A DNA stretch of 21,195 nt from a virus (taxonomy: Duplodnaviria > Heunggongvirae > Uroviricota > Caudoviricetes). The DNA lies in the IMG/VR virus record IMGVR_UViG_2534681940_000040; one strand, given 5' to 3'. The notes beneath the pieces were generated by a model. It was not told the origin of the DNA. It worked only from the letters and a program-made list of their open reading frames with translations, and did not search any database. Positions 5,276-5,597 of this stretch are shown here, one piece after another. The translations under genes were made by a program, and so were the position numbers. Positions within the stretch are counted from its first letter, which is position 1. Each line of letters begins with the position of its first letter.

Positions 5276-5362
5276 GAAACCAGAACATGCACACACAAAA
5301 AAACCGCTTGCCATGCCGCAATCGGTCAGGTTACATTTCCGCTGCACCTCATAAAACGGGTG

Positions 5363-5556
5363 CCGGGATTCTCAACCCGATACAGAGCAAAGCGCATAAC
5401 CGCGCTAGCGGTTTTTTTGTGCGTACTGTATTGCCACGTCTTTTTCGCGTCAGAATTATGGCGGGGCGTACGGGGCCGACTTCGGTCGGGCCGGATTCTT
5501 TGCTCTCCGGTGTTGAGAACCCTGTACGTCTCGCCACCCCGAGATTCTCAACTCTG
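5363..5556. repeat. cluster of direct and inverted ATTCTCAAC-type repeats in a non-coding island
   Basis: ATTCTCAAC at 5368-5376 and 5544-5552 (direct), GTTGAGAA at 5512-5519 (inverted), and CCGG(G)ATTCT at 5363 and 5491. Confidence 0.5.
5399..5418 (+). terminator. intrinsic terminator-like hairpin plus T-run
   Basis: ACCGC-gcta-GCGGT stem-loop followed by seven T (5412-5418), 120 nt after the stop at 5275. Confidence 0.5.
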
Positions 5557-5597
5557 GATGGTGAGTTATTTCTATCACCGAGCAAAGAGGCCACACC

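Follow-up and report, generated by a model that had tools for sequence, protein, structure and literature searches.

Tandem isrK-type and C4-type RNAs ahead of the replication genes of a P88-like prophage of Escherichia coli O157:H7

The window examined here is a stretch of 21,195 nucleotides (nt) of caudoviral DNA (IMG/VR record IMGVR_UViG_2534681940_000040; positions are counted from its first letter), and our subject is the island at 5276-5597, which separates the stop codon of a 99-amino-acid (aa) Ead/Ea22-like open reading frame (ORF) from the start codon of the next gene at 5598. The island is blank in RefSeq (one O157:H7 genome inspected, that of strain TR01), and some GenBank phage records label the region as a “transcriptional regulator” protein or coding sequence (CDS). 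The island is a known type of phage RNA switch, which consists of a leader RNA and, behind it, an antisense RNA covering the ribosome-binding site of the gene downstream.

Promoter, leader RNA, antisense RNA and targets in the island

All parts of the module lie on the + strand. An internal promoter of the sigma-70 type is predicted at 5308-5337 (TTGCCA-18 nt-TACATT), with a predicted start at about 5344, where a leader RNA of the isrK / P4-seqA type begins (5344-5418; RF01394, 63 bits vs. a gathering score of 50). This leader consists of a first hairpin (5344-5363), a second hairpin (5364-5379) whose loop holds the target site b1 (AUUCUCAAC, 5368-5376), a single-stranded target site a1 (AGAGCAAAG, 5384-5392) and an intrinsic terminator (5398-5413) with seven U residues at 5412-5418; its fold has a z-score of -2.7. 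The C4 / P4-CI-type antisense RNA that follows (5454-5541; RF01695, 78.5 bits vs. a gathering score of 45, E = 3.7e-14) is matched over the full length of the model (1-87 of 87). It is composed of a closing stem (5459-5475 with 5520-5536), a hairpin 1 with a UUCG loop (5476-5489), a hairpin 2 (5490-5511) whose loop carries the segment a' (UUCUUUGCUC at 5496-5505), and an unpaired joint b' (GUUGAGAA, 5512-5519). The minimum free energy (MFE) fold of the C4 segment is identical to the model structure (-47.6 kcal/mol, z = -4.9). The CC directly after the stem (5537-5538) is invariant in all loci compared (15, see below) and forms, with A5536, an A-CC that resembles a tRNA discriminator base plus CC.

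The pairing segments of the C4 RNA (a' = CUUUGCUC, b' = GUUGAGAA) are complementary both to b1/a1 in the leader and to a second pair of sites, b2/a2, downstream. Site b2 (AUUCUCAAC, 5544-5552) is complementary to b', and site a2 (GAGCAAAGA, 5580-5590) pairs with 5497-5505 (9 nt, 100% complementary). The latter extends over the Shine-Dalgarno sequence AAGAGG (5585-5590), which 7 nt separate from the ATG at 5598, and its duplex with a' reaches -14.3 kcal/mol, a value equalled by 7 of 1000 shuffles. Summed over the C4 loops and all four targets, the complementarity amounts to 35, compared to 22.3 +/- 2.0 in shuffled sequences, none of which (0 of 5000) attained 35. In the MFE fold of 5344-5620 the C4 loop region pairs in cis with b2/a2, and the Shine-Dalgarno sequence is buried.

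Several of these elements had been noticed, under other names, in the initial annotation of the window. Its terminator-like hairpin (ACCGC-GCUA-GCGGU plus seven T, 5399-5418), its UUCG hairpin (CCGAC-TTCG-GTCGG, 5476-5489), the sequence ATTCTCAAC at 5368-5376 and 5544-5552 with its inverse GTTGAGAA at 5512-5519, and an imperfect inverted repeat of about 27 nt (5365-5392 against 5496-5523) are present as described; these repeats and motifs are real and cluster far beyond chance. The first of these hairpins is the isrK terminator and the second is C4 hairpin 1; GTTGAGAA is the unpaired joint b', CTTTGCTC the loop a' of C4 hairpin 2, and ATTCTCAAC and GAGCAAAG (two copies each) are the targets b1/a1 within the isrK RNA and b2/a2 downstream. 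The inverted repeat is made up of two blocks, GGATTCTCAAC/GTTGAGAACCC (11 nt, 91% complementary) and AGAGCAAAG/CTTTGCTCT (9 nt, 100%). A repeat search yielded two families of direct repeats, CCGrGATTCTCAAC (5363-5376 and 5539-5552) and ACmGAGCAAAG (5382-5392 and 5577-5587), each complementary to one stretch between 5497 and 5522. All three copies of TTCTCAAC in the 21-kb window, and three of the five copies of GAGCAAAG, lie inside the island (ca. 0.9 expected per window in either case). The second copy of GAGCAAAG (5580-5587), which overlaps the Shine-Dalgarno sequence of the gene at 5598, had been overlooked, as had the internal promoter at 5308-5337, and no known family (P1/P7 c4, P4 CI/seqA, N15 cA, Gifsy-1 IsrK) had been named. 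The proposals of a small RNA and of a site gating the replication genes nevertheless pointed in the right direction: the Rfam/Infernal scan that had been suggested recognises two RNAs above the gathering score, one isrK-type and one C4-type, and these stand directly upstream of an epsilon-like gene, orf121 and the gpA endonuclease gene. Outside the island GAGCAAAG occurs only twice, at 4237-4244 (+) inside a 138-aa early gene and at 7598-7605 (-) antisense within gene A; both copies are most likely due to chance.

A further structure involves the terminator. An upstream arm ACACACAAAAAAACCGCTTGC (5291-5311, +) is complementary (21 nt, 90%) to GCTAGCGGTTTTTTTGTGCGT (5404-5424), i.e., the 3' half of the isrK terminator plus the U-tract, and this long-range helix dominates the MFE fold of 5285-5428 and is also found in the centroid fold (z = -4.7). 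Both arms are invariant across the P88-like loci, and covariation therefore provides no evidence for the helix. Because RNA started at the internal promoter lacks the upstream arm, the arm may act as an anti-terminator specific to transcripts from further upstream; alternatively, the helix may be a relic of an insertion into a bidirectional terminator.

Other candidate elements were considered and rejected. A second sigma-70-like site just before C4 (TTGCCA-17 nt-AATTAT, 5431-5459) has its predicted start inside the C4 stem and a -35 that is altered in P88 and Shae_phiSM, and is probably non-functional. An alternative hairpin at 5391-5406, which would compete with the terminator and be opened by pairing of C4 with a1, is 84% paired, with covariation not beyond that of shuffles. 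A minus-strand terminator at 5330-5292 folds no better than shuffles (z = 0.19). Weak Rfam matches (CRISPR-DR33, STnc410, manA-II, Hrs13, TCV_H4) all score far below their gathering scores, and no tRNA or tmRNA was found in the window. Esr41, a known Hfq-binding small RNA (sRNA) of O157, is encoded in SpLE1 and not in the island, and the open-access literature yielded nothing relevant on CP-933T together with small RNA.

Covariation and diversity of specificities

The window was compared with 14 loci fetched for this purpose, i.e., those of P88, vB_EcoM-569R5, Citrobacter phage Shae_phiSM, ST64B, N15, P4, five Stx or related lambdoid phages and three ECOR-derived phages; unless stated otherwise, the counts below refer to these 15 loci. 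The tandem of isrK followed by C4 is present in all 14 other loci, and the stems covary. The GenBank record of Stx2 phage F004 already annotates both non-coding RNAs side by side. For the isrK structure 95.8% of the cells are paired, and none of 500 shuffles reaches its covariation score. The C4 structure comprises 27 pairs, is 100% paired (34-47% in slid-register controls) and has 13 pairs that changed on both sides, again with 0 of 500 shuffles reaching this. A promoter-like site matching 8-10 of 12 positions occurs in all loci, with the -10 hexamer ending exactly 6 nt before position 1 of the isrK model.

Every locus has its own a' and b' with matching a1, b1, a2 and b2, and in 15 of 15 loci its own targets are the unique best partner of its C4 RNA. 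In 13 of the 15, the a2 site as detected has its end over the Shine-Dalgarno position, 8-11 nt ahead of the downstream start codon; in the two others, N15 and PhiR49_2, the automatic call placed the site wrongly. An alignment of four P88-like phages shows nearly all variable columns within the six blocks (b1, a1, a', b', b2 and a2), and most of the flanking sequence compared is 98-100% identical. In PA2, TL-2011c and F004 the pairing of a1 (CAAUCGAGG) with a' (CCUUGAUUG) includes G-U wobble pairs, which exist in + strand RNA only, and G-U wobbles also occur at the a1 and a2 sites of JNE122398. This covariation in trans is the decisive result: the repeats change together as reverse complements in all loci and are, therefore, RNA pairing partners, and a reading as DNA repeats is excluded because some of the pairs are wobbles that exist only in the + strand RNA.

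The hypervariability of the a and b sites among otherwise near-identical phages fits selection for distinct immunity specificities. As a separate observation, a and b types assort independently among near-identical P88-like phages (window 5368-5392, 5496-5519 and 5544-5588; loci L002-L004, L042, L061, L082, L101, L106, L119 and L134): for instance, a' UUUGGUU is found together with either AGUUCCA or UGUGGAA as b', and b' GUUGAGA with either UUUGCUC or UUCGUUU as a'. Each swap of specificity needs several coordinated replacements because the sites interleave in the order b1, a1, a', b', b2, a2. One IMG/VR contig (L070) has two C4 5' motifs on one strand (7025-7040 and 7894-7909), 869 nt apart, and may carry two tandem immunity cassettes. 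In TL-2011c, an Rfam match to sRNA-Xcc1 (L011 2523-2606; 79.6 bits vs. a gathering score of 53) sits between the gene after the C4 cassette and the annotated anti-repressor gene.

Through-ORF, mechanism and competing explanations

The initial annotation had stated that no credible ORF exists until 5598. This is incorrect because a 205-aa ORF (5287-5904, +), hereafter the through-ORF, crosses the whole island and runs through the RNA module. Its description of a non-coding island splitting the early operon thus holds only in part: the island has a predicted promoter of its own, and a conserved ORF bridges it. The through-ORF is a positional analogue of P4 eta with a Phage_ASH-type segment. Its ATG follows the stop codon of the preceding gene by 11 nt and precedes the internal -35 by 21 nt, and its TGA (5902-5904) overlaps the ATG of orf121 (5901) as ATGA. 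The openness of this frame was examined in 63 unique IMG/VR variants, plus P88, 569R5 and Shae_phiSM. It is open, with the same end point, in 11 of 12 unique P88-like variants and also in the three named phages. All 34 of the 34 lambdoid Ash-Rha variants likewise have it open, and there it shares the frame of the ATG that follows a2. In the stand-alone nin-region antirepressor class, stops interrupt it or it terminates close to the downstream ATG. Random specificity sequences placed in the scaffold of the window leave the frame open in only 36% of cases, and the probability that all seven a-types and six b-types of the P88-like phages are frame-compatible by chance is ca. 0.0005-0.0014. Several different junctions with the upstream sequence occur, and in each of them the ATG is in frame and preceded by a stop codon at a distance of 2-12 nt.

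The product itself gives a different picture. Pfam Phage_ASH (PF10554) scores 18.6 bits here (below the cut-off of 26), 27.1 in P88 and 82 in the P4 ORF that spans seqA-cI, and residues 13-105 match PHROG “transcriptional regulator” families (E = 1e-16 to 1e-13). These similarities are largely an echo of RNA conservation because the matched residues are the translation of the isrK-C4 module. Comparison with P4 Eta at the level of the protein gave only E = 0.07, confined to the isrK-encoded stretch. The through-ORF appears to be selected for being translated and not for its product. In four other loci (L009 8168-8812, L007 1141-2292, L008 1147-2304, L015 1446-2294) the Phage_ASH “Ash protein family” domain likewise matches the isrK-C4 translation residue for residue; in lambdoid phages the same reading frame continues from it into a Phage_pRha domain, whose first codon is the ATG after a2. 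For P4, RefSeq still carries the entry “cI gene product (AA 1-137), transcriptional repressor” where the CI RNA lies.

The first gene under the proposed control (5598-5828, +) encodes a 76-aa epsilon-like protein (PF25738, 31.9 bits vs. a cut-off of 27) that shares 32% identity over 50 aa with P4 epsilon (BLASTP, E = 6e-9) and is named “derepression protein” in RefSeq. It is followed by orf121 (5901-6266, +) and the gene of the gpA replication endonuclease (6273-9095, +; Phage_GPA, 438 bits), both of which would be gated by polarity. NCBIfam gave no match for the through-ORF, the epsilon-like gene, orf121 or the 99-aa ORF, orf121 shows no similarity to P4 ORF151, and no members of the Icd or Ant families were found downstream.

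We put the probability that the island is an RNA secondary-immunity cassette of the P4 / N15 / P1 type, in a P88-like O157:H7 prophage remnant, at roughly three in four. By analogy with these phages, it would most likely act as an RNA immunity system that gates the epsilon-like gene and replication gene A and is overridden by translation of the through-ORF. Starting from the promoter-like site, the two RNA folds, the four matched targets, the Shine-Dalgarno overlap, the epsilon homology and the conserved through-ORF, we infer the following course of events from what is described for P1 c4, P4 CI, N15 cA and Gifsy-1 IsrK (background in Citron & Schuster 1990, Biere et al. 1992 and Forti et al. 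1999). The internal promoter would be constitutive in the prophage, with most transcripts stopping at the terminator to give a leader RNA of ca. 75 nt. Read-through RNA would be processed, with RNase P cutting at the tRNA-like stem, to a stable C4-type RNA of ca. 78 nt. By pairing with a2/b2 in trans, or in cis before processing, this RNA would keep the epsilon-like anti-repressor gene from being translated; the untranslated mRNA would be exposed to Rho, and orf121 and replication gene A would stay off. Pairing with a1/b1 might reinforce termination of the leader, as in the P4 model, or allow the leader RNA to titrate C4, as in the Gifsy-1 model. Transcripts from the upstream early promoter would carry the ATG at 5287, so that ribosomes would cross the promoter, the terminator, C4 and the targets and, by stopping at the ATGA overlap, couple translation to the replication genes. 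Translation of the through-ORF would in this way prevent terminator formation and C4 action, the role that has been reported for P4 eta. In P4, according to a published summary, CI and seqA lie within eta and the immunity promoter is internal to it, full-length Eta is made only from the upstream promoter and is coupled to the preceding gene, and its translation blocks termination (PMC10111431).

A number of points weigh against the immunity interpretation. The b'-b2 duplex alone (-11.4 kcal/mol) is not better than that with shuffled targets, 208 of 1000 being equally good. RNase P processing, Rho polarity and the direction of regulation are all carried over from other phages. One P88-like variant (L073) has a stop inside the through-ORF, which in the window is without an obvious Shine-Dalgarno sequence. 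Its last ca. 100 codons overlap the epsilon-like gene out of frame and resemble out-of-frame translation, and this overlap shows no synonymous bias (4 synonymous vs. 29 non-synonymous codon changes between the window and Shae_phiSM; 11 vs. 25 in the epsilon frame). The classes with and without the through-ORF represent few lineages, so that the effective sample behind its association with operon context is small. In RefSeq, one insertion sequence (IS) copy of the prophage is given as partial, with a frameshift, and the gene of the tail tape measure as a pseudogene; the prophage, with its IS3-family insertions and frameshifted tail genes, is therefore defective, and the cassette may consequently no longer matter to the host. 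Finally, the prophage presumably corresponds to Sp13. The O157 Sakai Hfq-CRAC sRNA table (Tree et al., 2014, Table S2) has no Sp13 entry, which is a weak negative as the table is filtered.

Among the other explanations, it is rather unlikely that the mode of Gifsy-1 IsrK dominates. The read-through transcript would then be silent in cis, with its a1/b1 region paired with a'/b', the short leader, acting in trans, would open this structure and activate translation, and the cassette would be an inducer of the epsilon-like and replication genes and not an immunity repressor. The leader does score as isrK, the imperfect inverted repeat of 27 nt has its counterpart in helix b-I of the inactive “structure A” of Gifsy-1, the Shine-Dalgarno sequence is buried in the MFE fold of 5344-5620 mentioned above, and IsrK in trans raises anrP translation at least 100-fold (PMC4825925). 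However, the same authors call IsrK a structural homologue of P4 seqA and locate the processed RNA STnc1160 where C4 lies here (PMC4825925), and the covariation of the C4 fold and the invariant CC speak for an RNA that is processed, stable and active in trans, like those of P1, P4 and N15. The two modes can, moreover, coexist.

That the region codes solely for a 205-aa Ash-family “transcriptional regulator”, with the RNA features being incidental, we regard as very improbable. The ORF is open and conserved, its residues 13-105 match the PHROG families, Phage_ASH matches P4 Eta (82 bits), P88 (27 bits) and the lambdoid Ash-Rha ORFs, and a CDS is annotated in several GenBank records. Yet it is precisely the translated isrK-C4 module that these families match (NCBIfam gives no match and RefSeq no annotation), and the through frame is broken in PA2/TL-2011c/F004, in N15, in PhiR46_1 and in the PhiR12_2 class, whereas the RNA features hold in 15 of 15 loci. 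In addition, variation falls in reverse-complement blocks and not at third codon positions, and the stem changes are compensatory in the RNA but non-synonymous in the ORF. Even less credence can be given to the idea, raised in the initial annotation as an iteron-like protein-binding array, that the repeats are operator-like DNA sites or an origin of replication, to which gpA or the upstream winged-helix protein would bind. The presence of direct and inverted repeats shortly before a replication gene would suit it, but the repeats covary as complementary RNA, and some of their pairs are G-U, which would become A-C mismatches in the opposite strand. They are also located in loops and joints of two covariation-supported RNA folds, and they differ between near-identical phages. 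The same layout is also found beside unrelated genes (Rha, Ant, epsilon) and in phages with unrelated replication systems. A mere intergenic terminator or insulator between two transcription units is scarcely believable either: the intrinsic terminator at 5398-5418 is strong, but this view leaves the promoter, the C4 fold, the four targets, the Shine-Dalgarno overlap and the conserved through-ORF unexplained.

Within the immunity interpretation, a variant particular to P88-like phages of the P2 family can be put forward tentatively, and we would give it clearly less than even odds. It would combine a translation override by a through-ORF that is selected only for translation, is hypervariable and lies out of frame over the epsilon-like gene, the long-range helix as a second anti-terminator for upstream-promoter transcripts, independently assorting a/b types under diversifying selection, and possibly cross-talk between helper phages and those P4-like satellites that employ an RNA of this kind together with an epsilon homologue. 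Transcripts of the early operon would in this way override the RNA immunity of their own phage and bring ribosomes to the replication genes.

Related systems and genomic setting

The closest known system is that of P4, where isrK (8692-8615) is followed by C4 (8507-8420), matched by the same Rfam models in the same order and coinciding with the immunity region. The promoter of P4 likewise lies 6 nt before position 1 of the isrK model, and the first promoter listed for its left operon is the positional equivalent of that at 5308-5337. P4 also has upstream and downstream targets, the downstream one over a Shine-Dalgarno sequence, and a long ORF (Phage_ASH) running from upstream of the internal promoter through the RNA module. 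The order of immunity RNA, epsilon-family gene and replication gene is parallel as well. P4 is, however, a satellite with an alpha primase, whereas the window represents a helper-type phage of the P2 family with a gpA rolling-circle endonuclease, and the spacer between isrK and C4 is 35 nt here vs. 107 nt in P4. Furthermore, the ATG after seqC in P4 is that of kil, nested in frame in eta, but the ATG at 5598 is that of the epsilon-like gene, in another frame than the through-ORF, so that an in-frame kil counterpart is not found here.

The immI region of P1/P7 has a C4 RNA of the same family (RF01695). There, a' and b' reportedly have two target sets, of which the downstream set masks a ribosome-binding site leading to the anti-repressor (Citron & Schuster 1990 via PMC12197685). 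The P1 leader model c4-a1b1 (RF03163) scores 15.9 bits here vs. a gathering score of 46.7, and icd-ant lies downstream in P1 immI, whereas no Icd or Ant homologues are found here; the comparison with P1 was made by model and description. In the isrK-orf45(STnc1160)-anrP locus of Gifsy-1 (Salmonella), an isrK-family leader has its own promoter and a leaky terminator, with a processed RNA downstream, and an anti-repressor-type gene is controlled via structure around its ribosome-binding site, as we propose here. What is documented for Gifsy-1 is trans activation by the short RNA with AnrP and then AntQ as output; here, by analogy, the output would be the epsilon-like and replication genes. N15 has the same tandem, annotated in GenBank as “cA: secondary immunity repressor” and followed by the Ant gene, and its b' (GUUGAGAAC) is identical to that of the window. 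It is a stand-alone operon with the through frame closed by stops, and its a' specificity and downstream genes differ. In phages with Ash-Rha ORFs (Stx2a_WGPS2 gp13, ST64B sb41, PhiR49_2) the module likewise occupies a place in the early operon with regulatory genes on one side and replication genes on the other, and, as here, an open through-ORF starts ahead of the internal promoter. Unlike here, it continues in frame into the Rha domain, a nesting similar to that of eta and kil.

The cassette is thus a largely unannotated new example of a mechanism that is already known and that our findings leave unchanged; we found no description of it in P88-like phages or in this O157 prophage in the open-access literature. 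The annotation is corrected in that the blank stretch holds two regulatory RNAs, a promoter and a through-ORF, and Phage_ASH and related PHROG “regulator” families largely represent the translated RNA module. The sharing of an RNA-immunity and epsilon cassette between a helper-type phage of the P2 family and the satellite P4 bears on module exchange between helpers and satellites, and the hypervariable yet matched a/b sites make up a small natural model in which the evolution of RNA-RNA specificity can be studied.

Positions 4000-10600 of the window are 100% identical to many E. coli O157:H7 chromosomes, e.g., that of strain TR01, where the prophage element adjoins yecA, and at least 80% of the length of this part is matched in 859 complete E. 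coli genomes. The closest sequenced phages are P88 and other members of Xuanwuvirus (P2 family, Peduoviridae). The gene order begins with an integrase and a helix-turn-helix repressor on the - strand, followed on the + strand by the early operon (DUF4761, DUF4754, a MarR-type winged-helix protein and the Ead/Ea22-like 99-aa ORF with its stop at 5275), the island with the genes described above and, after gpA, ParM and ParR. The latter plasmid partition pair (StbA/StbB-type, 9172-10513), which directly follows the replication gene and is also found in P88, suggests that P88-like phages can be maintained as plasmids, or once were. Two identical ALIL frameshift pseudoknots in inverted orientation (11087-11203, -, and 19078-19194, +; 120.9 bits each) mark two IS3-family copies that flank ca. 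8 kb of the prophage, and a full-length Rfam match to IS009 RNA (191 bits) is present at 11836-12034 (+).

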